Positions 6,149 to 62,973 of a stretch of DNA of 64,000 nucleotides are shown in pieces. Under the pieces are notes generated by a model. That model made no database searches. It was not told the DNA's origin and saw only the letters and a list, made by a program, of their open reading frames with translations. This DNA is from a bacterium (GTDB lineage Bacteria > Patescibacteriota > Minisyncoccia > Moranbacterales > UBA9337), in NCBI GenBank assembly GCA_021159185.1, contig JAGGSH010000012.1, positions 1,235 through 65,234 of the forward strand, in the 5' to 3' direction. The first letter of the stretch is position 1; the number at the start of each line of letters is the position of its first letter. The position numbers were made by a program, and so were the translations under genes.

Positions 6149-6460
6149 TTAAAGCAACTCCGCGTCATCAATTGATTCTAAATCTATATCCTCGTCAAAA
6201 TTATCCAAGCTTTCTAAATCGCTTTCAAAATCTTCAATATCTGCCTCAAAATCAGCGTCTGAATTTCCCATATCAATTTCAGGGACTGTTTCATTTTCCG
6301 GCAAAATCTTTTCTTCCGATAAACTAGGGTTTAAATTACCAGCCGGAGCTGAAATTTCCAATTCGTCGTTTTTTAAAAAGCTACTATTTATAATCAATAG
6401 GATACCGGCTATGATAATAAATACTCCGAAAAGTATCCACCCGTAATATTTTTTTGCCAT
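6149..6460 (-). CDS. small membrane-anchored acidic protein
   Basis: N-terminal TM helix WILFGVFIIIAGILLII followed by a D/E-rich tail. Its 3' end abuts repeat C2. Confidence 0.4.
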   Translation of the reverse strand: MAKKYYGWILFGVFIIIAGILLIINSSFLKNDELEISAPAGNLNPSLSEEKILPENETVPEIDMGNSDADFEADIEDFESDLESLDNFDEDIDLESIDDAELL

Positions 6461-6527
6461 ATATTTTTGTTTTTATTTGATTAACTTTGATTATTAAATT
6501 ATACAATATTATTTTGCAAATTACTAA

Positions 6528-8873
6528 TTATTTTTCTATTTTTCCATCCTGTCTTACTTGTTCAAGATTAACCGACAAAAGTTTTGACACGCCGTTTTCG
6601 CCCATTGTCACTCCGTAAAGCAATGAGGCTTGGCGCATTGTTTCGCGGTTATGAGTGATAATAATAAATTGGGTATTGCCGGACAATTCCCGCACGATGC
6701 GATTAAAGCGTTTGGCGTTGGACTCGTCCAGCGCCGCTTCCACTTCATCCAACGCCGCGAAAGGAGGCGGATTGAAAGAGATGATGGCAAAGAGAAGCGC
6801 GATAGATGTAAGCGACCGTTCCCCTCCGGAAAGCATCGCGAGGCTGGAGATTTTTTTCCCCGGCGGACAAGCTGAAATATCAATTCCGATTTCTTCTTTT
6901 TCCGACTGATTACTTTCGCCATTATCATTTTCTAATTCCGCTAAACTGTTTTCATCATTTTCCGCTTTTTCTTTTCCAATTCTCAATTCTTGGCTTTTGA
7001 CTTTTGACTTTTGACTTTTGACTTTTGACTTTGTCAGCTTCGCGTTTCCTCCTCCAAAAATCACGCGAAAGTATTTCGTGAATTCTTTGTTTATTCGCGC
7101 GAAGGCTGTTATAAAAACTTCGTTTATTTTTTTGTCCATTTCCTTCACTACCTCCTTGAGAGAATTTATCGCGTCTTCTAAGTCTTTTGATTCTTTAATT
7201 AGAAAATCAAAGCGGCTGTTCGTTTCCTGATATTCTTTTAGTACTATTGGATCGATTCCGCCTATCTGCTCCATCTGTATTTTAAGCCTTGTGATTTCTT
7301 TTCTTAAATCATCTTCGCTGACGGGCTGGCCGTCATACTTCAATTCGCTAACGCTAATTTTAAGCTCATCTCTAACTTCGCTAATTAAATCTTCCTCCTT
7401 AACTTCAACACGAGCCAGTTTTATTTTAGCCTCGTTAAATTGGTCTTTAAATCTATTCAGCTCATCTTGCTTGGCGCGCAATTGTCTCTCAACTTCAAAG
7501 AAATGCCGACGCGCCTTTTTATCTTCTTCAATCTCATCATTAATATTTTTATCCAATTTTTTCAGGTTTTCTTTCAGTAAGCTAATATTTTTAGCCGTTT
7601 TTTCTTGATTTTCTTGAAATTCTTTAATTCTTTTTTCCGTGTCTTTTTTCTCATCCGTTTCAACTAATGATTTTTCAACTTTTATTTCCCTCTTGCCTAC
7701 GGCTGAATAAAGCTTATGCAGATTTTGCTGGATGGCTCTGGCAAATTCTTTAATCTCTTGAAGCTCTTTCAAAGTTTCTATTTTTTCCAGTCTTTTAATT
7801 AATTTTTCCTGGCTGCGGCGAATTTGTTCCAAATTAGACTGGACATAATTCAAGTCAACCGGAATGCTTTGGATAATTTTTTGCTGGGATTGTTTTTCTT
7901 TCAATAATTCTATTCTTCCCTCTGTTATCACCAGTTCTTTTTCCAAATCATTAAGTTTTTGGCGCGTGTCGTTTCGTTTTCTTTCCAACTCTTCCTGCTT
8001 TTCCATCCCTCGCGTTTTTTTTGATTCGGCCTGCATTTCGTCATTAAGCTTGTCCGCTTCACGCTGAATATTTATGGCTTTTCTGCCCAGCTGTTCTTTT
8101 TCTTCATACGAACCGTCTTTTTCGGCCTGAAAAGCGTTCCAAAGATAAGAAAATAATTTCATCCGTTTTTCTTTAAGTTTTTGGGAAACTTCTTTTCCTT
8201 TTTTAGCTTTTTCCGCTTGCCGTTTGAGCATTTTAAGATGTGGTTCAATTTCATTGGCTAATTCTTTTACTCGCTCCAAATTTTTTTTGGTTGATTCAAT
8301 TTTTTTTAGCGCTCGCGCTTTTTTAATTTGGAATTGCTTGACGCCGGCCGCGTCTTCTAAGATTGTCCGCCGTTCACTAGGCGAAGCGTTTAAAACTTCG
8401 TCGGACATGCCTTGATTGATTACGCAGTAGCTTTTTTTTCCTATGCCCGCTTTGGCCAAAATGTCAACAATGTCAATCAATCGCGCGCGGCTTCCGTTAA
8501 TTAAATATTCGGATTCTCCGTTTCTAAAAAGCTTGCGGCTTATTGCCACTTCTGAAAAATCCAGCGGTATTTTTTTATCGGAATTGTCAAAATATAAAGT
8601 GGCCGAAGCGCAGCCTAAGCGCGCTTTTTCTCCCGATCCGGCAAAAATAATATCTTCCGATTTTTTTCCGCGCAGGCTTTTCATTGACTGTTCGCCCATC
8701 ACCCATTGGATAGCGTCGGCTATATTGGATTTCCCCGATCCATTGGGGCCGACAATCACGGTTATGCCGCAGTTTTTACTTCCATTATTAAGACTGCGCG
8801 CCGGCGAAAAATCCAGCGTGGTTTTTTTAGCAAAAGACTTAAATCCCGATAATTCTAATTTTCTCAAAAACAT
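6528..8873 (-). CDS. smc: SMC-family chromosome segregation ATPase, short form (~782 aa, no obvious hinge)
   Basis: N-terminal MFLRKLELSGFKSF...GPNGSGKSNIADAIQWVMGEQS (Walker A). C-terminal LSGGERSLTSIALLFAI...ALDEVEAALDE (signature and Walker B). The middle is continuous coiled coil with no recognisable hinge domain. The listed ORF (to 9014) adds 47 codons read through repeat copy A3. The true start is the ATG at 8873-8871. Confidence 0.8.
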   Translation of the reverse strand: MFLRKLELSGFKSFAKKTTLDFSPARSLNNGSKNCGITVIVGPNGSGKSNIADAIQWVMGEQSMKSLRGKKSEDIIFAGSGEKARLGCASATLYFDNSDKKIPLDFSEVAISRKLFRNGESEYLINGSRARLIDIVDILAKAGIGKKSYCVINQGMSDEVLNASPSERRTILEDAAGVKQFQIKKARALKKIESTKKNLERVKELANEIEPHLKMLKRQAEKAKKGKEVSQKLKEKRMKLFSYLWNAFQAEKDGSYEEKEQLGRKAINIQREADKLNDEMQAESKKTRGMEKQEELERKRNDTRQKLNDLEKELVITEGRIELLKEKQSQQKIIQSIPVDLNYVQSNLEQIRRSQEKLIKRLEKIETLKELQEIKEFARAIQQNLHKLYSAVGKREIKVEKSLVETDEKKDTEKRIKEFQENQEKTAKNISLLKENLKKLDKNINDEIEEDKKARRHFFEVERQLRAKQDELNRFKDQFNEAKIKLARVEVKEEDLISEVRDELKISVSELKYDGQPVSEDDLRKEITRLKIQMEQIGGIDPIVLKEYQETNSRFDFLIKESKDLEDAINSLKEVVKEMDKKINEVFITAFARINKEFTKYFRVIFGGGNAKLTKSKVKSQKSKVKSQELRIGKEKAENDENSLAELENDNGESNQSEKEEIGIDISACPPGKKISSLAMLSGGERSLTSIALLFAIISFNPPPFAALDEVEAALDESNAKRFNRIVRELSGNTQFIIITHNRETMRQASLLYGVTMGENGVSKLLSVNLEQVRQDGKIEK
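6993..7034. repeat. tandem 7-nt repeat (CTTTTGA)x5-6 inside smc
   Basis: Encodes KSKVKSQKSKVKSQ in the SMC C-terminal head (21-nt protein-level period). Confidence 0.8.
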
Positions 8874-16247: not shown

Positions 16248-16323
16248 AAAATTACTGGCGGTGAATTCCGCGCAGAATTTCTGCGCCAAACTGCCGCTAA
16301 GCTAAATATTTATTATAATTTTA

Positions 16324-16956
16324 TTATCTTGAATAATATTCAACCACTAATTGAGGATTAACTCCTACTTCGGTTTTTTCCATGGATGGGCTGGACAAAA
16401 CTTTTCCTTCCAGTTTTTTCGCGTCAAAGCTGATCCATGCGGGAAAATCTTTTTTATTTTTTAAAATCTGGGATCTGTTTTTAAAATAGTTTTTATTTTT
16501 TTTATTGCCTCTCACGGATATTAAATCGCTTGTTTTAATTTTACAAGAAGGAATATTTACCTTTCTTCCATTAACTTCAAAAACGCCATGCCCCACCAGC
16601 TGTCTGGCTAGCGCTCTGGAACTGGCGAAACCCATGCGATAAACTACATTATCCATTCTCATTTCCAATCTTTCCATTAAAAGATCGCCTGTCACTCCTT
16701 CTTTATTTTTAATTTCGTCAAAATGTTTTTTGAATTGTTTTTCCATTATTCCGTAAATCCTTTTGATTTTTTGTTTCATGGCAAGCTGTTTCCCATATTC
16801 ACTCAATCCCCGCCCAAAGTTCTTGCCATGCATTCCCGGCGGATAAGCTTTTTTTATCATAGCGCACTTAGGCGAATTACAACGATCACCTTTCAAAAAA
16901 AGTTTTTCTCCAGCCCTTCGGCATTTTCTGCATTTTGCTTTTGTATCTCTAGCCAT
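16324..16956 (-). CDS. rpsD: 30S ribosomal protein S4
   Basis: CRKCRRAGEKLFLKGDRC..PGMHG...LSEYGKQLAMKQKIKRIYGI is canonical S4. Confidence 0.92.
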   Translation of the reverse strand: MARDTKAKCRKCRRAGEKLFLKGDRCNSPKCAMIKKAYPPGMHGKNFGRGLSEYGKQLAMKQKIKRIYGIMEKQFKKHFDEIKNKEGVTGDLLMERLEMRMDNVVYRMGFASSRALARQLVGHGVFEVNGRKVNIPSCKIKTSDLISVRGNKKNKNYFKNRSQILKNKKDFPAWISFDAKKLEGKVLSSPSMEKTEVGVNPQLVVEYYSR

Positions 16957-16969
16957 AGTTGTTCTTGTA

Positions 16970-17066
16970 ACTCGCCTCTTGTAGCTTGAAACTCAAGATA
17001 AGAAATTGATCAATTATTAAATCTTAATTCTTGGGTTATAAGTTGCGAGTTGCGAGTTTTGAGATT
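16970..17066. repeat. Family R intergenic ~96-bp element (copy R1, rpsM-rpsD spacer)
   Basis: CTCGCCTCTTGTAgCTTGAAACTCAAGATAAGAAATTGATCAATTATTAAATCTTAATTCTTGGGTTATAAGTTGCGAGTTGCGAGTTTTGAGATTA. Near-identical to 17471-17568. Palindromic termini ...ACTCGC / GCGAGTT. Confidence 0.85.
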
Positions 17067-17454
17067 ATGTTTTTTCCGACGCTGATCTTCTTCCGCTTCC
17101 CATCGTGCGCCGCACATTCCCCCTTACGGTTCTGGTGTTAGTCTTGGTTCTCTGCCCTCTTACCGGAAGGCCTTTTTGGTGCCTGATTCCCCGATAGCAT
17201 CCAATTTCTTTTAAACGCCTGATATTCATTTCAACACTATGTTTTAACTCTCCTTCTACGCTGTACTTTTTCTCTATTTCGTTTCTAAGGCTGTTAACTT
17301 CTTCAGCAGATAAATCTTTCGTTTTAGTATCTTTATTAATTTTAAGGCACTCCAAAATTTTTCCACTGCAAGGCTTGCCTATGCCATAAATATAAGTTAA
17401 CGCGATTTCTATTCTCTTGTTATCGGGAATATTAATCCCAGCTATTCTAACCAT
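17065..17454 (-). CDS. rpsM: 30S ribosomal protein S13
   Basis: [26 protein letters not shown]...[24 protein letters not shown] is canonical S13. Confidence 0.93.
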
Positions 17455-17470
17455 AATTCTTACAACTCAC

Positions 17471-17568
17471 GACTCGCCTCTTGTAACTTGAAACTCAAGA
17501 TAAGAAATTGATCAATTATTAAATCTTAATTCTTGGGTTATAAGTTGCGAGTTGCGAGTTTTGAGATT
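17471..17568. repeat. Family R intergenic ~96-bp element (copy R2, rpsK-rpsM spacer)
   Basis: Same sequence as R1 with 1-2 mismatches. A degenerate third copy lies at ~18150-18255 (rpmJ-rpsK spacer), and a related motif at 11340-11400 upstream of rpmF. Confidence 0.85.
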
Positions 17569-18148
17569 ACACTCGGCGCGGTTTGCGCGAACGGCATCCA
17601 TTATGAGGTATGGGGGTCATATCTCTAATCGCCAACAGCGTAAACCCGCCATTAGCTAAAGACCTGACGGACGACTCTCTTCCGCTTCCCACACCCTTAA
17701 TAAAAACTTCCAATTCACGGACATCAAATTTTTTCACTTTTTCAGCCACATCTCTGGCCACTTGAGTAGCGGCGTAAGGAGTGGATTTTTTAGCTCCTTT
17801 AAATCCTAGTAATCCCGCGCTAGACCAACCCAAAACGGCGCCGTTAAGATCAGAAATGGTTATCATTGTATTATTGTAAGTGCACTGAATATGCGCCTGC
17901 CCTTTCAGCACCTGCCGTTTTATTTTTTTCTTTTTTTTATTTTTGGCAACCGCTTCCGGTTTTTTCACTCCTCTCTTTTCTTCCATCTTTTTAGTTTTTG
18001 CGTCCTTTTTATTTTTTCCTTTTTTTTCCGGCACAGTTTTATTAGCAATAGATTTAGCAACAGATAATTTATCTATCTTTTGTTTATCTTCCGCATTTTT
18101 AGCGAGAGATTTTTTCTTTTTTTCAATTTTTTTATTTTCCTCTGCCAT
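17567..18148 (-). CDS. rpsK: 30S ribosomal protein S11 with ~75-aa K-rich N-terminal extension
   Basis: GQAHIQCTYNNTMITISDLNGAVLGWSSAG..GFKGAKKSTPYAA..GVGSGRESSVRSL..GGFTLLAIRDMTPIPHNGCR is canonical S11. Preceded by a lysine-rich low-complexity N-terminus. Confidence 0.9.
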   Translation of the reverse strand: MAEENKKIEKKKKSLAKNAEDKQKIDKLSVAKSIANKTVPEKKGKNKKDAKTKKMEEKRGVKKPEAVAKNKKKKKIKRQVLKGQAHIQCTYNNTMITISDLNGAVLGWSSAGLLGFKGAKKSTPYAATQVARDVAEKVKKFDVRELEVFIKGVGSGRESSVRSLANGGFTLLAIRDMTPIPHNGCRSRKPRRV

Positions 18149-18259
18149 ATTATTTTTAAACTCACAATTTATAATTTATCTTGTAACTTGCAGCTCAAGA
18201 AAGAAAAATTATAAATCTTAATTCTTAAGTTTCGAGTTACGCGTTACAAGTTACGTGTT

Positions 18260-18373
18260 TTACCCTTGTCTCTGTTTATGTCTCGGATTAGAACAAATCA
18301 CATAGAGTCTTCCTCTGCGCTTCACTATTTTGCACTTATCGCACATTTTTTTAACTGACGCTCTAACTTTCAT
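18260..18373 (-). CDS. rpmJ: 50S ribosomal protein L36
   Basis: Not in the ORF track (37 aa). The minus strand reads [37 protein letters not shown], canonical L36. Its ATG overlaps the infA TGA as ATGA. Confidence 0.9.
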
Positions 18374-18582
18374 AGCCTTTGAGTTATTCTTCCTTTAGTT
18401 AAATCATAAGGACTCATTTCCAATAAAACTTTATCCCCCGGCAATAATCGAATATAATTAACTCTCATTCTACCCGAAATGTGGGCTAAGATTTCATGGC
18501 CATTCTCCAGCTTAACTTTAAAAGTGGTGCTGGGCAATGTTTCCATAACTACGCCCTCAAGTTTTATTAATTCTTTTCCCAT
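18370..18582 (-). CDS. infA: translation initiation factor IF-1
   Basis: [64 protein letters not shown] is canonical IF-1. Confidence 0.93.
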
Positions 18583-18749
18583 ATTAAAGCCAATATAAAA
18601 ATAGAGGGACTTTTTCTTCTCCGGCTAAAAATCGGAGAAGTGTTAACAAGCCAGTCCTAATTCTTGAAACTTGAGTTCTGCTGAAAAACAGCAGACCAAT
18701 GAAACCTCTATTTTAAAACTTCTATTAAATTTTCCAAATGTCTTAATCC

Positions 18750-18777
18750 ATACTAACAAGTATTAAAATTTTGTCAA
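18750..18777 (-). promoter_or_regulatory. putative sigma70-like promoter for the infA-rpmJ-rpsK-rpsM-rpsD-rpoA-rplQ cluster
   Basis: Minus strand shows TTGACA, a 16-nt spacer, then TAGTAT, ~170 nt upstream of infA. Two hairpins (CTTCTCCG..CGGAGAAG, TCTGCTG..CAGCAGA) lie in the leader. Inferred by eye only. Confidence 0.3.
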
Positions 18778-19590
18778 ATAAAATTGGTTGCAGCGATAGC
18801 GGGAAGAATTAATAAGCGTAAATATATTCAAAATAATAGATAAGACCAATATTATTGGCAGAATAACCCATGCCATGCCACTTAATATATTCCGATTATC
18901 ATTTAAGCTTCCCCTTACTATAATCATTTCTTTACTTTCTTCTTCATCATTTTTCACTTGAGCAATTATTTCTCTAGCTTCGGGATTGTTGCTTGCGTTG
19001 AATTCAACAGTTTCATAAATTAAACTATCCGATTCGCTTTTAGCGTTACTTTTAATTTCACCTGTTTGCGATAATACAATTGCGCCTGCCTCGCGCGCGC
19101 CAAATATCTGAACCGTTACAACAGCTTCTTTTCCATTGATATTTCCTTTTTTAACCGCCACTCCTATTTCTTTATAATTAGAATTGATAATATTTTTGCG
19201 GTGCTCCAAACTTTCCATCCAAGCCTTGTGCTGATTTTCAGCGCTGGAAAAATTTATAGCCAGATTTTCTCCCGCGTATATGTAGTCGTATTCGTTCTTC
19301 TCGATCCAATGCCAAGGAGTTAATCCGTTGGGAGAAGTATGGGCAAAATAATTATTACTTATCATATCTTCGGATTTTTCTTGAGCAGCCCGTGAAAGCT
19401 GATAATTTTCCGTTAAAATATCCAGCCCTATGGATTTTCTTTCCTTATTTACTAGTTCAATAACATTTTCAGCTGTTATTTCTTTCGCCCAAACTATCTG
19501 ACTGTTCGCGAATAATCCCAAAAACAGCCCGCTTGTTAACAGCGCTAGCGATAGTATTTTTTTACTTTTATTGATATTCTTGGCTTTCAT
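18763..19590 (-). CDS. CAP (SCP/PR-1-like) domain protein, membrane-anchored
   Basis: N-terminal signal/TM. YFAHTSPNG...GENLA...HRKNIINSNYKEIGVAV resembles bacterial CAP/YkwD-like domains. C-terminal TM helix. Confidence 0.55.
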   Translation of the reverse strand: MKAKNINKSKKILSLALLTSGLFLGLFANSQIVWAKEITAENVIELVNKERKSIGLDILTENYQLSRAAQEKSEDMISNNYFAHTSPNGLTPWHWIEKNEYDYIYAGENLAINFSSAENQHKAWMESLEHRKNIINSNYKEIGVAVKKGNINGKEAVVTVQIFGAREAGAIVLSQTGEIKSNAKSESDSLIYETVEFNASNNPEAREIIAQVKNDEEESKEMIIVRGSLNDNRNILSGMAWVILPIILVLSIILNIFTLINSSRYRCNQFYLTKF

Positions 19591-53674: not shown

Positions 53675-55204
53675 TTATTTTATTCTTTTAAATAAAACTT
53701 CGTTAAGCCTTTCAGTCTTCAGCGCCTTTTTGATCTTCTCCGCAGTCTCAGACATAAAAGGTTTCAAAAATTCCGCTATTAAACTTAAATCATCAACTAG
53801 TTTCTGTATTACTTTTCTAAACTCCTCTTTTTTACTTTCATCCTTAGCCAATTCCCAAGGTTTAGCATCTTCAATATATTTATTGTCCTCGCGCACAATA
53901 TTCCAAACATAATTCAATGCTTTGTCCAGTTCCAGCTCATCAATTTTTTTTGAAAATTGTTCATTATTTATTGTTTTATGTTTCATATTCCATGTTCCAT
54001 GTTCCATGAGCTTCACTACTCGTGAAATCAGATTTCCCAACCCGTTCGCCAAATCAGCATTGTATTTTTCAACCATTCTTTCCATTGTCATATCAATATC
54101 TTCTCCGAATGATCCCGCGCTCATTAAAAGATAGCGTGTTCCGTCCGTCCCGAATTTTTCCAGCATTTCATCTATACCTATAACATTGCCCAGCGTCTTG
54201 CTCATTTTTTTGCCTTCCGATAAAATATGCCCGTGAACAAATAATTCCCGTGGTAATTCAATTCCGAGATGCAAAAGCATGATCGGCCACATAGTGGCAT
54301 GCATTCTTAAAATATCTTTTCCAATAAGCTGAATATCCGGCGGCCAAAATCCTAGATTCTCCCCCTTTAGAAAAGGGGACCGGGGGGATTTGAAAGATTC
54401 TTTACTTTGTAAAATATTACTTTCATCCACTACATTATTCTTCAAATCCCTCTCTAACTCTCCCTTTTCCAAAGGGAGAGAACCATTCCACCCAACCCCC
54501 GTTAAATAATTCAGAAAAGCATCCACCCAAACATAGGTGGTATAATTTTTATCAAAAGGAAGCGGGATCCCCCAAGAAACATTTTTTCTGGAAATGGAAA
54601 CATCCTGCAATTTCTGTCTTTCCAAAAAAGAAAGGATTTCTCTTTTGTATTTTTCCGGACCAATTTTAAATTCATCGCTTTTTATTTTTTCAGTCAGCTG
54701 TGATTGGACTTCTTCCATTTTCAAAAGATAGCTTTCCTCTTTTATTATTTCCGGTTTAATGTTATGTTCCGGACATTTTCCGTCCACCAAATCGCTTTTA
54801 TTTTTAAACTGTTCGCATCCAACACAATATAATCCTTCATAAGTTCCTTTATAGATCAAGCCTTTATCGTATAACAATTGCAAAACTTTTTGGACTGTTT
54901 CTTTATGCTTTTTGTCAGTGGTGCGGATAAAATTATCGTAGTTTATATTCAACTTCTCGCATAAACTTTTAAATTCTTCCGCGATTTCATCCACGAACTG
55001 CTGAGAATCTTTCCCGGCTTCTTCGGTCTTTTTCTGGATTTTTAATCCATATTCATCCGTTCCCGTAAGCAGAAAAGTTTTTTTACGCTGTTGCCTATTC
55101 CAGCGCGCTAAAATATCCGCCGCCACAGTTGTGTAAGCATGCCCTATATGCGGCTTGGCATTTGCGTAATATATAGGAGTAGTGATATAAAATTTGTTTT
55201 TCAT
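53675..55204 (-). CDS. metG: methionyl-tRNA synthetase (short form, no C-terminal tRNA-binding domain) carrying an in-frame repeat-derived insertion
   Basis: HIGH motif (PIYYANAKPHIGHAYT), four Cys zinc knuckle, KMSKS (KMSKTLGN). Residues LPLEKGELERDLKNNVVDESNILQSKESFKSPRSPFLKGENLG between LNY...and...WPPDIQLIGKDIL are encoded by Family D copy D3. Confidence 0.92.
   Translation of the reverse strand: MKNKFYITTPIYYANAKPHIGHAYTTVAADILARWNRQQRKKTFLLTGTDEYGLKIQKKTEEAGKDSQQFVDEIAEEFKSLCEKLNINYDNFIRTTDKKHKETVQKVLQLLYDKGLIYKGTYEGLYCVGCEQFKNKSDLVDGKCPEHNIKPEIIKEESYLLKMEEVQSQLTEKIKSDEFKIGPEKYKREILSFLERQKLQDVSISRKNVSWGIPLPFDKNYTTYVWVDAFLNYLTGVGWNGSLPLEKGELERDLKNNVVDESNILQSKESFKSPRSPFLKGENLGFWPPDIQLIGKDILRMHATMWPIMLLHLGIELPRELFVHGHILSEGKKMSKTLGNVIGIDEMLEKFGTDGTRYLLMSAGSFGEDIDMTMERMVEKYNADLANGLGNLISRVVKLMEHGTWNMKHKTINNEQFSKKIDELELDKALNYVWNIVREDNKYIEDAKPWELAKDESKKEEFRKVIQKLVDDLSLIAEFLKPFMSETAEKIKKALKTERLNEVLFKRIK
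54357..54480. repeat. Family D palindromic element (copy D3, inside the metG coding sequence)
   Basis: CCCCCTTTAGAAAAGGGGACCGGGGGGATTTGAAAG...CTTCAAATCCCTCTC...CTCCCTTTTCCAAAGGGAGAG. The two terminal hairpins translate to SPFLKGE and LPLEKGE. Confidence 0.8.
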
Positions 55205-58891: not shown

Positions 58892-59203
58892 TCAACAGTT
58901 ATTTTCCTTTCTATATTCAACTCTTTTCCGATAAAGCTTTTCCGTAAAACCGCCTTCTTGCTCATGCTTCTTTTCCAAAGCTTTAATTTGTTTGTGCAAC
59001 AGATAAGTCGCCTGATGGCAAAGCGTCAAAAGCCAATTAGCGGCAATTTCCGGTTTTCCGCTCCGCGCCGCTCCGGTCATTTGCTCTTTTAATTTCCAAC
59101 TTTTAATCCATTGCTCGCAAAATTTTACGGTGTGGTCGTAAATCAAAACTGAAAACCAATAAGTATAGAGTTTTTTGTAGAGTTGCTGGTTCATCTTATT
59201 CAA
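58892..59203 (-). CDS. hypothetical helical protein
   Basis: 103-aa ORF, W-rich helical. No confident family assignment. Confidence 0.4.
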   Translation of the reverse strand: MNKMNQQLYKKLYTYWFSVLIYDHTVKFCEQWIKSWKLKEQMTGAARSGKPEIAANWLLTLCHQATYLLHKQIKALEKKHEQEGGFTEKLYRKRVEYRKENNC

Positions 59204-59242
59204 GACTTAAGATCCTTAGGTAACTTAAGTAACTTAAGTTAC

Positions 59243-60658
59243 TTAACTATTCAGTTTCTCGCTCAACCACGTTTTTAGCCCTTCTGCTTTCACCCTCTCC
59301 TGCTTCATCGTATCCCGATCCCGAACTGTCACTGTTCCGTCTTTTAAAGTTTCAAAATCCACCGTAATACAGTAAGGTGTACCGATTTCGTCTTGGCGAC
59401 GGTAGCGTTTGCCGATGTTGCCGTTGTCGTCAAACTCGCACATATATTGCGATTTTAAATTTTCGTAAATTTCGCGCGCTTTCTTTACCAACTCCGGTTT
59501 GTTTTTAAGCAAAGGAAAGATAGCCGCTTTAATCGGCGCCAAATTTTTCGGAAATTTCATTACCGTCCGCTCACTGCCATCCTCTAATTTCTCTTTCGTA
59601 ATTGCGTCCGTAATTACGGCCAGAAAAGTACGATCTACTCCCACGGATGTTTCCACAATATGCGGAATGTATTTTTCATTGGTTTGCGGATCGCGATAAG
59701 ATAAGTCCTTGTCCGAGAATTTTGAATGCTGTTTTAAGTCGTAATCCGCGCGATAATGCACGCCTTCCAATTCTTTAAAACCAAACGGAAACTTATATTC
59801 AATATCCCAGGCCGCTTTGGCATAAAAAACCAAATTCTCGTGCTTATGCCATCTTAAATTTTCTTTTTTAATTCCAAGATCTATGTAAAACTGCCAGCGC
59901 CGTTCCCGCCACTCTTCATAACTTTTCATCGCTTCATCCGAATGGACGAAAAATTGCATCTCCATTTGTTCAAATTCCCGTTTGCGGAAAATGAACTGGC
60001 GCGCCGTAATTTCATTTCTGAAAGCCTTTCCAATTTGCGCGATTCCAAACGGCACTTTCACCCGCGTAGAATCCAGAACATTTTTAAAGTTGACATAAAT
60101 CCCTTGGCAAGTTTCCCCCCGCAGATAAACCGGATTCTTACTCCAATCACCCGTAAAATTTCCCAAATTGGATTGCACTAAAAGATTAAATTCTTTGGCC
60201 TCGGAAAAATCACTGTCCCCGCATTTCGGGCATTTTAATTTTTCTCTATTTTCTTTCAGCAATTTATTTATTTCTTCCTCGCTCATTTTTTCGTCCGCGA
60301 AAACTCCCGCTTCTTCCAAAAGATGATCCACTCTCACTCTGGTGTGGCATTTTTTGCATTCCGCCAAGGGATCGGAAAATCCGCTGATATGCCCTGACGC
60401 TTCCCAAACTTTCGGATGCATAAAAATACTAGAATCCAGTCCCACGATGTTTTCATTCTCTTGCACCATCGCTTTCCACCACGCCGATTTTATATTATTA
60501 GCCAGCTCCGCGCCGTAAGGCCCGTAATCATAAACGGCCGAAAATCCTCCGTAAATTTCCGAAGACGAAAAAACAAAGCCTCGCCTCTTGCAAAGAGCTG
60601 CAATTTCTTCCATTAAATCCTTGTCCCGTAAATTATTTTTGTCTTGTTTTTGAGACAT
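59243..60658 (-). CDS. glyQS: glycyl-tRNA synthetase (dimeric class II, alpha2 type)
   Basis: RGFVFSSSEIYGGFSAVYDYGPYGAELANNIK..WW, class II motifs 2 and 3, and a C-terminal anticodon-binding domain are collinear with GlyQS. Confidence 0.92.
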   Translation of the reverse strand: MSQKQDKNNLRDKDLMEEIAALCKRRGFVFSSSEIYGGFSAVYDYGPYGAELANNIKSAWWKAMVQENENIVGLDSSIFMHPKVWEASGHISGFSDPLAECKKCHTRVRVDHLLEEAGVFADEKMSEEEINKLLKENREKLKCPKCGDSDFSEAKEFNLLVQSNLGNFTGDWSKNPVYLRGETCQGIYVNFKNVLDSTRVKVPFGIAQIGKAFRNEITARQFIFRKREFEQMEMQFFVHSDEAMKSYEEWRERRWQFYIDLGIKKENLRWHKHENLVFYAKAAWDIEYKFPFGFKELEGVHYRADYDLKQHSKFSDKDLSYRDPQTNEKYIPHIVETSVGVDRTFLAVITDAITKEKLEDGSERTVMKFPKNLAPIKAAIFPLLKNKPELVKKAREIYENLKSQYMCEFDDNGNIGKRYRRQDEIGTPYCITVDFETLKDGTVTVRDRDTMKQERVKAEGLKTWLSEKLNS

Positions 60659-60785
60659 AATTAAAAAAATAGTTAGAAACTGTTTTTTTAATGATAACTC
60701 TTTTTATCCTTATTTACAAATAATATACTGTGTTTATCAGCCACACTTAGAAATGTTAATTTATATCATATCATACTCACTCTAA

Positions 60786-60819
60786 ATACATTATCTCGCG
60801 ATCGCGGTAAATTGTATTT
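60786..60819. repeat. 34-bp direct repeat DR1 (contains the CGCGATCGCG palindrome)
   Basis: ATACATTATCTCGCGATCGCGGTAAATTGTATTT. 33/34 identical to DR2 at 61513-61546. Lies 128 bp upstream of glyQS. Confidence 0.85.
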
Positions 60820-60868
60820 CTTTAAAAAATATCTTGCAGGAAATATCTTATAGGAAATCACAGCTAAC

Positions 60869-61477
60869 CTACTTATTTTTCATATCATAAACTCTGTCAA
60901 CTAGCAAATAATTCACATAATTTACCATTTTTCTTTTCTTAATTTCTTTTATTAAATCCACTGTTAATGGAAACTTACTCACAAAAACACTTTTCTGAAG
61001 CTGTTTATAGCTTAATAAATAAAGTTCGCTCCTTAACCAGTCCCGCTCCTTCCTTATTTTTTCAGGAATATCAAATATTACTACTCTGTATTTTTTATCC
61101 CACTTTTGTTTTAAGATTTTTTTACGCCTCAATACATAGTTTACTAATTTTTTGCCTTTTTCTGTTATAGAATAAGTGCTTCCGTTCTTTTCCACAAATC
61201 CCTGTTTTTGTAATCTTCTAATACTTTGTTTTATGGTGTTTTTTTCAAATTTTTTCTTTTTTAGCTTGTCTGGCTGTAAAATATCGAAGTTTCCGCTTGG
61301 CAAATCAGCGTAGTAAGAAGGTTTAAGAAAAGTTTCTATAGTGGCTTCACCCAAAAAAAGCAATAAAGAAAAAGACCAAGCGCTTGCGTCAAGTGAACCT
61401 TTTATAATATTTCGAGCTAATTTTTTTGAATATTTAGCTACCTTTTTATTTTTATTTTTATTTTTATTTTTATTCAT
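60869..61477 (-). CDS. PaaX-family-like transcriptional regulator (wHTH-like N-terminus + PaaX_C-like domain), tentative
   Basis: C-terminal KWDKKYRVVIFDIPEKIRKERDWLRSELYLLSYKQLQKSVFVSKFP matches the W.G.W.lv.fDiPE..R..Rd.lR..L...Gf..LQ.SVwv.P motif of PaaX C-terminal domains. The N-terminus begins with an (NK)n low-complexity tract. Confidence 0.5.
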   Translation of the reverse strand: MNKNKNKNKNKKVAKYSKKLARNIIKGSLDASAWSFSLLLFLGEATIETFLKPSYYADLPSGNFDILQPDKLKKKKFEKNTIKQSIRRLQKQGFVEKNGSTYSITEKGKKLVNYVLRRKKILKQKWDKKYRVVIFDIPEKIRKERDWLRSELYLLSYKQLQKSVFVSKFPLTVDLIKEIKKRKMVNYVNYLLVDRVYDMKNK

Positions 61478-61512
61478 TTATATATCTTATAAATTGCAAG
61501 CACATATAAATA

Positions 61513-61546
61513 ATACATTATCTCGCGATCGCGGTAAACTGTATTT
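61513..61546. repeat. 34-bp direct repeat DR2 (contains the CGCGATCGCG palindrome)
   Basis: ATACATTATCTCGCGATCGCGGTAAACTGTATTT. Lies 36 bp upstream of the PaaX-like gene start. Confidence 0.85.
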
Positions 61547-61680
61547 AAGGACTGTGTCTGAGAATTATGTAAATATGAGATTATAACAATGCGAAAATAT
61601 GAAAATATGATTAAAACAGTTAAACTAACTACGATAATTAAAATGATTGGAAGTAGGATGAATTTTTAAAGAATACTTCA

Positions 61681-62973
61681 TTATTTCTTTGTATTTTTTA
61701 TTTTCTTCCTCAATAATGACATTGGTTTAATATTTTTCTTGCCAATATTTAAATAATAAAATTTATTCTGCCCGCCATGCGCCGATTGCACCACTTTCTC
61801 GCTTTCATTGTAAATTTCCTTGATTCTAGTCATTTGATTTCCGTCCGGACTTATAATTTCAATTTTATCATTTTTATAAACCGCGTTATGAGGCTTGATC
61901 TTAATTAAATTTTCATTTTTTTTACTTTCAACTTTCAACTTTTTATTCTCTATTACCTCTCCCACAAATTCATACAGGCATTTTTTATGCGAATTGGAAA
62001 TAAAATGTTCCGGCTCATTGCCCAACAAAAAACCGGCAGTATATCCGCGACGAAACAATTTATTCAATTCTTTTTGCTCTTCTCGGATAATTTTTTGTAT
62101 TTCTTGTTTGGGCTTTTTTTTCAATACCGCGTCCAGAACTTTTCTATAAGCGCGAACCACCACCGACAGATAAAAAACGCTTTTATTTCTTCCTTCAATT
62201 TTAAAGAAAGTTACTCCCGCTTTTCGCAAATCATTCAGATACGCCAATAGATTTAAATCCCGGCTGTTAAAAAAATAGGTTCCATTCTTATCTTCTTCCA
62301 AATCAATTTCAAATTTTTTTTGACTATCGGTAACGGTAGAATATTTCCACCGGCAAGGCTGAGCGCAATCTCCCAAATTAGCCGACCGCCCCGTCATCCA
62401 TTGGCTCAAAATGCAACGGCCGGAATAACTCATACACATCGCTCCGTGCACGAGATACTCCAATTCCACTTCGGGAACTTTCTTTTTAATTTCTTTTATT
62501 TCTTTTAAAGTTGTTTCGCGCGCTAAAATTACCCGTTTTGCTCCCTGCTCTCCCCAAAATTTTACCGCCCGCCAATTAAGAGCGTTGGCTTGTGTGGAAA
62601 GATGAATATTAACATTGGGCAAATTTTTTTTAACCAGCGTTAAAATTCCCGGATCGCTGACAATAATTCCGTCTATATCAAGTTTTTTCAAAAATTTCAA
62701 ATGCCGTTCCGCTTGTTTTAAATGAATATTGTGAGCGTAAATATTGATGGTAATATAAAACTTCTTGCCTTTTTGATGCGCGTATTCAATTCCTTTTTTC
62801 AATTTATTGGGAGTGAAATCATTAATTCGCGCCCGCAAAGAAAAATCAGGAACGCCCGCGTAAACCGCGTCCGCCCCATATTCAAAAGCGTATTTAAGTT
62901 TTTCCGTGTTCCCCGCCGGCGCGAGAAGTTCAAGGGTTTTATTATTTTTCATTATTTTCTTTTCTCTCTCCAC
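61681..62973 (-). CDS. U32-family peptidase (collagenase-like / RlhA-TrhP-type)
   Basis: LELLAPAGN.EKLKYAFEYGADAVY and EYLVHGAMCMSYSGRCILSQ are U32 signature blocks. C-terminal beta-barrel extension. Confidence 0.85.
   Translation of the reverse strand: MEREKKIMKNNKTLELLAPAGNTEKLKYAFEYGADAVYAGVPDFSLRARINDFTPNKLKKGIEYAHQKGKKFYITINIYAHNIHLKQAERHLKFLKKLDIDGIIVSDPGILTLVKKNLPNVNIHLSTQANALNWRAVKFWGEQGAKRVILARETTLKEIKEIKKKVPEVELEYLVHGAMCMSYSGRCILSQWMTGRSANLGDCAQPCRWKYSTVTDSQKKFEIDLEEDKNGTYFFNSRDLNLLAYLNDLRKAGVTFFKIEGRNKSVFYLSVVVRAYRKVLDAVLKKKPKQEIQKIIREEQKELNKLFRRGYTAGFLLGNEPEHFISNSHKKCLYEFVGEVIENKKLKVESKKNENLIKIKPHNAVYKNDKIEIISPDGNQMTRIKEIYNESEKVVQSAHGGQNKFYYLNIGKKNIKPMSLLRKKIKNTKK

Follow-up and report, generated by a model that had tools for sequence, protein, structure and literature searches.

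A regulator gene between two palindromes

The stretch of contig JAGGSH010000012.1 considered here (the window, 64 kb in all) carries a gene for a short PaaX-like regulator that is bracketed by two near-identical direct repeats, DR1 and DR2. The gene lies between a Peptidase U32 family gene and glyQS, which encodes a single-chain glycyl-tRNA synthetase, and all three are on the minus strand. On the plus strand DR1 spans 60786-60819 and DR2 spans 61513-61546. These are the sole occurrences of their 34-mer in the window, and the 34-mer is never matched in 100 dinucleotide-preserving shuffles of it. A repeat search lengthens the pair by one base to 35 nt (60785-60819 and 61512-61546), with 34/35 positions identical (97%). 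Within the window CGCGATCGCG, with up to 1 mismatch, is confined to DR1 and DR2, and so is AATACA-N(16-28)-TGTATT. When the window was scanned in relaxed form with a 36-nt consensus the runner-up scored 22/36, which is shuffle level. There are 20 CGRYCG hexamers in the window, and symmetric arms are found around those at DR1 and DR2 only. A preliminary description of this DNA had reported two repeats on either side of the PaaX-like gene, and this is confirmed with exactly two copies. The distances it gave are also correct: DR2 is separated from the regulator ATG (61477) by 35 nt, and DR1 from the glyQS ATG (60658) by 127 nt. It had allowed that the 34-mer might turn out to be a generic repeat present at many loci. 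We reject this, as there are two copies in 64 kb and the relaxed scans never rise above shuffle level.

Each copy of the repeat is the core of an imperfect palindrome of about 38 bp. The symmetric parts are the CGATCG centre and the outer arms AAATACA/TGTATTT. The inner arms are asymmetric, reading TTTACC on one side and GAGATAA on the other when followed on the regulator's strand. The two sites are 727 bp apart. Between the regulator stop and DR1 there is also a 14-nt tandem direct repeat (60829-60856; plus strand ATATCTTGCAGGAA and ATATCTTATAGGAA, 12/14 identical), followed by an A run that is a T-run on the regulator's strand. In two relatives whose regulators are 95-96% identical (L004 and L092; related loci are cited by such numbers) the two units are identical to each other, ATTTCCTGCAAGAT twice on the gene's strand. 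This tandem repeat could be a site for another protein or a product of slippage.

The protein has 202 residues. Its Cas2-like domain matches PF20803 (PaaX_M) with an E value of 9.4e-16 and 58 bits against a cutoff of 24, and its N-terminal winged helix matches Pfam HTH_45 at 1.1e-5, barely over the cutoff of that family. Modelled with AlphaFold2 from 22 homologues, the protein reaches a mean predicted local distance difference test score of 86. In the winged-helix part of this model there are two helices, 69-74 and 79-92, with a beta hairpin at 95-104. Foldseek gives PaaX of E. coli W (8a39) as the top fold match of the model in the PDB (E 2e-5), and then Rv0674, 3l09 and several Cas2 proteins. 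A sequence search of the PDB returned generic winged-helix matches only, the best being AspA of pNOB8 at 3e-4, and these were set aside. The C-terminal domain of PaaX has no Pfam match in the protein, which stops at residue 202, straight after the Cas2-like domain. That last domain carries the Cas2-like motifs VVIFDIPE and LQKSVF. The score for TIGR02277, the PaaX equivalog model, is 33.1 bits against a cutoff of 264.55, and the score for the Cas2 model TIGR01573 is 18.8 bits against 24.5. The regulator shares two of the three PaaX domains but fails the tests that define PaaX, and it is not Cas2 either.

A homologue search gave 416 matches, and PF20803 is present in all 120 homologues that were listed. 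Among these, entries with a named source belong to Patescibacteria or to metagenomes that bear labels such as Moranbacteria and Falkowbacteria; most entries are nameless. Some sources annotate the homologues as Cas2. An exhaustive profile search found 2153 clusters (50% identity, E<=1e-10), and the 150 best-scoring of these range from about 80 to 250 aa, most being 160-230 aa. The residues that are invariant in the family include W126, D127, R131, F135, D136, P138, E139, R145, W147 and R149. At the 5' end of the window gene (61449-61477) the hexanucleotide AAAAAT is repeated on the gene's strand and encodes MNKNKNKNKNKK. The L004 homologue, which is 95% identical, has two fewer NK units and is 198 rather than 202 aa long, an in-frame repeat-length polymorphism between strains.

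Paired sites across the regulator family

The family was sampled through 80 homologue loci from GTDB genomes (Patescibacteria), and 73 genes were compared. For each gene the 200 nt upstream were matched against the 250 nt downstream, with at least 20/24 identical positions as the threshold. Such a match flanks 75% of the 73 homologue genes, compared with 2.5% of 646 control open reading frames from the same loci. Palindrome scans then recovered the sites at most of the low-scoring loci and at the frameshifted L034. The copies have median centres 44.5 nt before the start codon and 36 nt past the stop codon. The upstream site of the window is conserved in L004, L091 and L092 (95-96% identical), and a cognate palindrome occupies the same position in L005, L008, L021 and about 60 other loci. 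L008 has GTGACACTT(T/A)ACTGCGATCGCGAGATAGTGT(A/C) once before the gene and once after it. L005 has the upstream element CTACA...CACGATCGCGAGATTTTGTAG and an inverted copy of it 25-60 nt past the stop codon. The sequence of the site varies among genomes and even among the paralogues of one genome (L030, L031, L032), and the two copies of each gene agree with each other. Paired flanking palindromes are a property of the whole regulator family and not of the window locus alone. The preliminary description had also considered that relatives might carry the gene with bare flanks, and that is not what we find.

The anatomy of the site was studied in a positional profile of 51 non-redundant copy pairs aligned on their centres. 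Symmetry and identity between copies are 0.80-0.98 at positions 1-4 and 0.82-0.93 at positions 12-17. Both dip to 0.64-0.68 at positions 5-9, and past 19-20 they are at background. The half-sites have C at position 3 in 98% and G at position 2 in 89%, so the centre is CG(A/G)(T/C)CG in nearly all members; a few have CTATAG. The arms are specific to each genome (ATTATACAC, GTGACA, TTGACAA, TATAACA, TATAGCAC, ATCCACAAC and others) and track the predicted recognition helix. TIRQS..RRL is found with ATTATACAC, NSARTILWRL with TATAACA, and NS(L/F)xTALWRL with TA(T)AGCA. This two-peaked profile suits the site of a dimeric protein with widely spaced half-sites better than a continuous stem in RNA or DNA.

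The upstream copy overlaps a conserved pair of promoter-like -35 and -10 hexamers. A consensus scan predicts the core promoter of the regulator inside the upstream site (Table 1), and the CGATCG centre falls within its 17-nt spacer. L008, L019 and L021 share this layout, with TT(T/C)AC(C/T), a 17-nt spacer and then a -10 hexamer within the right arm. At 47% of loci the upstream copy has a -10-like hexamer (at least 5/6) in its right arm; for the other three arms the figures are 14-25%. L005 and L021 have TATAAT 6-7 nt ahead of the ATG. There is in addition an extended -10-like sequence, TGTTATAAT, at 61579-61587 on the minus strand. It lies upstream of DR2 by about 30 nt and is partly kept in L004 (TGTCATAAT) and L005 (TGTTATAAA).

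Outside these pairs the palindromes are rare. Across 875 kb of related loci there are about 12 extra copies, most of them no further than 3 kb from the gene. With so few extra copies, and those so close to the gene, we conclude that the family proteins are probably local regulators.

Table 1. Features of the regulator locus, in window coordinates
Feature	Position	Strand	Description
glyQS, single-chain glycyl-tRNA synthetase, downstream neighbour	59243..60658	-	Pfam tRNA-synt_2b and HGTP_anticodon
glyQS promoter-like site, separate from the palindrome	60691..60719	-	TTGTAA-17-TATCAT, consensus scan
Downstream site (DR1)	60783..60820	-	second 38-bp palindrome, centre 60801/60802, about 49 nt past the regulator stop
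Short PaaX-like regulator gene, 202 aa	60869..61477	-	winged helix and Cas2-like PaaX_M, Pfam
Upstream site (DR2)	61510..61547	-	38-bp imperfect palindrome, centre 61528/61529, ends 35 nt before the regulator ATG
Predicted regulator core promoter, inside the upstream site	61510..61538	-	-35 TTTACC 61538-61533, 17-nt spacer, -10 TATTAT 61515-61510, consensus scan
Peptidase U32 family gene, upstream neighbour	61681..62973	-	Pfam Peptidase_U32, 4.3e-89

Weighing the explanations

We argue that each of the two repeats is probably a cognate DNA-binding site for the PaaX-type regulator encoded between them, and we put the probability of this at roughly 0.62. Among the reasons are that the flanking pair is found family-wide, that the site co-varies with the protein across about 60 genomes, and that its position is constant. 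Further support comes from the uniqueness of the repeat in the window, the metagenome scan described below, the two-peaked profile, the overlap with promoter-like hexamers, the likeness to PaaX in operator geometry and fold, and the scarcity of extra copies. Under this scenario each winged helix of a dimer would read one of the outer half-sites 12-17 bp from the centre (ATACA/TGTAT here), and the conserved Cas2-like dimer would contact the invariant centre (CGATCG here). Since the -35 and the -10 lie inside the upstream copy with the centre in the spacer, a dimer on that copy would shut out RNA polymerase. The result would be negative autoregulation, like that of E. coli PaaX at its promoter Px. 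The downstream copy would be an auxiliary operator that belongs to the 3' end of the regulator gene. It might take part in a loop of about 730 bp between the copies, which would be cooperative and raise local occupancy. Alternatively it might be a roadblock at the 3' boundary of the gene, against read-through into glyQS or, where the neighbour is convergent, against antisense entry.

Several points weigh against the cognate-site explanation. The arms are centred about 29 bp apart, which is 2.8 helical turns, so they share a face of the DNA less neatly than the arms of the E. coli PaaX site at 33 bp. The copies are also alike (about 0.7) at the non-symmetric positions 5-9, which a symmetric dimer does not explain. 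That likeness needs either a promoter element shared by both copies or gene conversion between them. If the candidate promoter at TGTTATAAT is used, the palindrome is transcribed and lies in a 5' untranslated region instead of a promoter. Some genomes have perfect palindromes, such as L026 with a hairpin of -36 kcal/mol and A- and T-tracts on either side, and these may leave room for an RNA or terminator role there. Looping requires an oligomer above the dimer. We infer the binding, the repression, the looping or roadblock and the auxiliary role of the downstream copy from sequence comparison, as we do every functional step in the family.

One can imagine instead that both copies are promoters under one repressor, and that the regulator controls both itself and, from DR1, glyQS. 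This was one of two readings offered by the preliminary description. The half of it that stands is autoregulation, which is likely given a probable cognate palindrome over a conserved predicted promoter. As an account of both copies it is unlikely, although several observations fit it. The -35-like TTTACC is kept in both window copies. The downstream copies of L021 and L019 keep a good -10 (TATAAT and TATGAT) 45-133 nt before the next gene, and that of L021 is a 39/40 duplicate. L026 has one copy before each of three adjacent co-directional genes, for a cyclodipeptide synthase (CDPS) fusion, a racemase and a major facilitator superfamily transporter. In addition, the right arm of the downstream copy has a -10-like hexamer more often before a co-directional next gene (32%) than beside a convergent one (12%). 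In some genomes, then, the second copy resembles a promoter for the next gene. For the window, however, control of glyQS by DR1 is not supported, because the -10 position of DR1 is degenerate (TATTTA, with the final T missing), because glyQS owns a separate promoter-like site at a varying distance, and because the placement of the copy is tied to the regulator stop. The glyQS promoter-like site is identical in L004 and reads TTGTAA-17-TATAAT in L008, and its distance from the palindrome is about 85 nt in the window but about 44 nt in L008. The downstream centre lies 2-107 nt (median 36) past the regulator stop, whereas the next co-directional gene starts 41 to about 690 nt off. Where glyQS is 1.5 kb off, as in the L005 clade, the copy is still at the 3' end of the regulator. 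The next gene is convergent in 18/53 loci, and many of these neighbours are large and clearly real genes. The downstream genes of the 53 loci represent 63 Pfam families, and these share no theme (glyQS, ksgA, comM-like, enolase, queA, grpE, groEL and others). Another explanation places the palindromes at the RNA level. They would be transcript hairpins that terminate transcription, stabilise 3' ends or mark sites of processing, and the copies would resemble each other through duplication. We regard this as very unlikely. It would suit the perfect, very stable palindromes of genomes like L026, and it would suit the convergent loci, where the copy sits in a short gap between two stop codons and a bidirectional terminator is expected. 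A consensus scan found no intrinsic terminator at the repeats and no canonical one between the regulator and glyQS, and the second of these absences leaves a place for such an element. Yet the window copies fold weakly (-7.4 kcal/mol, z -1.8 to -2.7) around a large internal loop of 6 nt on each side, and the family-wide dip in symmetry at positions 5-9 is unlike a stem. Downstream copies are not more symmetric than upstream ones (median 15/20 palindromic for both) and have no consistent T-run. The upstream copy lies over the predicted promoter and would be mostly untranscribed. A scan of 60400-61900 with Rfam gave no credible match and no T-box before the window's glyQS. A hairpin also gives no reason for the sequence to co-vary with one protein family.

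The other reading in the preliminary description was an inserted cassette of about 730 bp. In its fullest form the palindromes would be recombination or cleavage sites, perhaps cut at CGATCG by the Cas2-like domain, and the gene would move or be excised as a unit. The gene and its two sites do form a self-contained module amid unrelated housekeeping genes, and the acidic residues of the Cas2-like domain, with the motif FDIPE, are invariant in the family. The position of the module also differs within the Moranbacteria, where L019 and L021 have the order regulator, U32, glyQS in place of the U32, regulator, glyQS of the window. Finally, the sister genomes L026 (5476-8691) and L027 (9908-11592) differ by one gene, a fusion of CDPS and a solute-binding domain (475 aa), which sits exactly between two 34-nt regulator palindromes. 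This difference looks like a gain or loss by recombination between repeated palindromes. Even so, the synteny is stable. The exact regulator protein is found in several metagenome contigs with the same neighbours, and L004 (95% identical) and L091 and L092 (96%) keep the order U32, regulator, glyQS together with both repeats. An unbiased scan of metagenome contigs for the DNA pattern turned up only two, L091 and L092. Both belong to samples other than the source, and in each the two matches lie 715 nt apart around the 96% identical homologue. Regulators of the L005 and L008 groups, at about 61% identity, are still between U32 and glyQS, and six independent assemblies of the window's lineage have an identical arrangement and orientation with no polymorphism. 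There is one module per 64 kb. The called genes up to 10 kb from the regulator include no integrase or transposase, and searches of phage, plasmid and IMG/VR collections with the regulator gave no match. No empty site or remnant was seen, although no search was aimed at empty U32-glyQS junctions; every sampled lineage carries the gene. Paralogues bear distinct sites, as diverging regulators would, and the Cas2-like domain of PaaX is a dimerisation domain (PMC9493321; 8a39). We therefore reject a recent cassette insertion on the conserved synteny and the absence from the phage, plasmid and IMG/VR collections, and the broader idea of a mobile or recombining cassette is the least probable of those we weighed. 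Asymmetric centres that are flipped between copies or between sister genomes (L026/L027, L017, L060) had suggested a Hin-like inversion. This too is rejected, because template switching at palindromes yields such flips and the orientation of the gene never changes. A last scenario treats the palindrome-gene-palindrome unit as an autonomous Patescibacteria module with a purpose other than ordinary target regulation. The Cas2-like dimer would read and perhaps nick the centre and the winged helices would read the arms, and the outcome would be a looped or insulated domain or a cassette-like gain, loss or relocation of genes. The version with gain, loss or relocation is hinted at by the gene that distinguishes L026 from L027 and by the differing position of the module with respect to U32, but we consider the scenario as a whole quite improbable.

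Some further features of these loci should be noted. A 23-nt inverted repeat (60652-60700, 83% complementary, 3-nt gap) lies over the predicted glyQS -10 (TATCAT) and the ATG, and L004 retains it in slightly altered form. Its role may be that of an operator or of a structure masking the glyQS start codon. L021 (4563-4950) and L005 (about 6460-6710) have a structured leader before glyQS, with the T-box-like motif GGTGGAACCGCCCCG and a terminator-like hairpin, and the leader region of L021 also contains a tRNA gene. The window and L008 have no such leader. The Rfam T-box model is below threshold in the L021 leader (24 bits, E 0.0015) and finds nothing in that of L005. At 59202-59251 of the window an overlapping 29-nt palindrome (AAGACTTAAGATCCTTAGGTAACTTAAGT...) occupies the gap between glyQS and the next small open reading frame. 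L003 is a strain variant found in the same metagenome. Its class I aminoacyl-tRNA synthetase gene at 16274-18967 (about 53675-55204 of the window) is called as two pieces of 432 aa and 298 aa separated by a 101-aa open reading frame on the opposite strand. L001 and L002 have a single 509-aa gene there; the change is a strain-level insertion of about 1.2 kb. The Moranbacteria contig L005 has a c-di-GMP-II-GAG riboswitch aptamer at 227-319 (Rfam, 43.1 bits, above the gathering score) upstream of a Peptidase_M73 gene.

Comparison with known systems

The Patescibacteria, or candidate phyla radiation (CPR), are ultra-small and mostly uncultured, have few recognisable regulators, and their gene regulation is nearly unexplored. 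Here we have a large and apparently CPR-specific family, the 2153 clusters above, that is tied to a predicted site readable from the flanks of each gene. This could yield hundreds to thousands of predicted regulator-operator pairs with differing specificities and a common plan, which are potential orthogonal parts. A literature search found nothing that links PaaX-like proteins with Patescibacteria, CPR or Cas2, or that describes the flanking arrangement, though subscription journals lay outside its coverage. The arrangement of a regulator flanked by its predicted sites is apparently family-wide and undescribed.

The closest comparison is with PaaX itself (COG3327), the repressor of phenylacetate catabolism in E. 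coli and Pseudomonas. The E. coli PaaX operator is TGATTC-N27-GAATCA, and at Px, its own promoter, PaaX acts as a repressor through steric hindrance (PMC9493321). The window regulator shares with PaaX an N-terminal winged helix followed by a Cas2-like central domain (PF20803; fold match 8a39). The PaaX operator is a long-spaced palindrome of about 39 bp over a promoter, and the putative operator here, 38 bp long and over a -35/-10 pair, resembles it in layout. The geometry is about 6-N22-6 here (arms at 12-17), as against 6-N27-6 in E. coli PaaX. An exact TGATTC-N25-29-GAATCA has no match in the paa cluster of E. coli K-12, and real PaaX sites are imperfect. The differences are nonetheless considerable. 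PaaX has 316 aa and a C-terminal domain that binds phenylacetyl-CoA, and this domain is missing from the 202-aa window protein, which also misses the TIGR02277 cutoff as given above. There are no paa genes beside the window regulator, whose neighbours are the U32 peptidase and glyQS. The conserved GC-rich CGRYCG centre is not described for the PaaX operator. Moreover, the 3' end of E. coli paaX runs into paaY, so a downstream copy is probably lacking there.

Cas2 is the other protein that the family resembles. The C-terminal domain of the regulator has the ferredoxin-like fold of Cas2 and the two Cas2-like motifs. However, its score for the Cas2 model is below the cutoff, the domain is fused to a winged helix, and the called genes up to 10 kb to either side include no cas gene. 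Family genes are often mislabelled as Cas2 or PaaX in annotation, and neither label fits, whether CRISPR Cas2 or phenylacetate regulator.

A gene between two copies of a palindromic site is also the plan of Hin/hix segments, of integron cassettes with their attC sites, and of elements made of repetitive extragenic palindromes and their associated tyrosine transposases (REP/RAYT). Unlike these, the locus here has no recombinase, integrase or HUH transposase, and the gene between the sites encodes a winged helix with a Cas2-like domain. Hin/hix segments differ further in that no polymorphism of orientation or of presence and absence is seen at the window locus. As for integrons, the gene is fixed in place down to about 61% identity and no attC features were seen, although attC core motifs were not formally searched. 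REP/RAYT and IS200/IS605 elements differ in that the palindromes here lack REP features and are not dispersed; there are two copies per 64 kb and about 12 extra in 875 kb.

The arrangement of the sites can also be compared with repressors that loop between a main and an auxiliary operator, bound at once by an oligomer of at least four subunits. Examples are LacI with O1, O2 and O3, GalR with OE and OI, lambda CI with OL and OR, and TP901-1 CI with OR, OL and OD. In these systems there is an operator at the promoter and an identical or near-identical second operator hundreds of bp off, downstream of the start of the regulated gene. In the window the second putative operator lies just past the stop codon of the regulator itself, so that a loop would enclose exactly that gene. 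The paired-site arrangement is also apparently kept across thousands of family members here. A constant second site past the stop codon is not explained by a standard autoregulated repressor, and it may point to looping, to insulation or to another function at the boundary of the gene.

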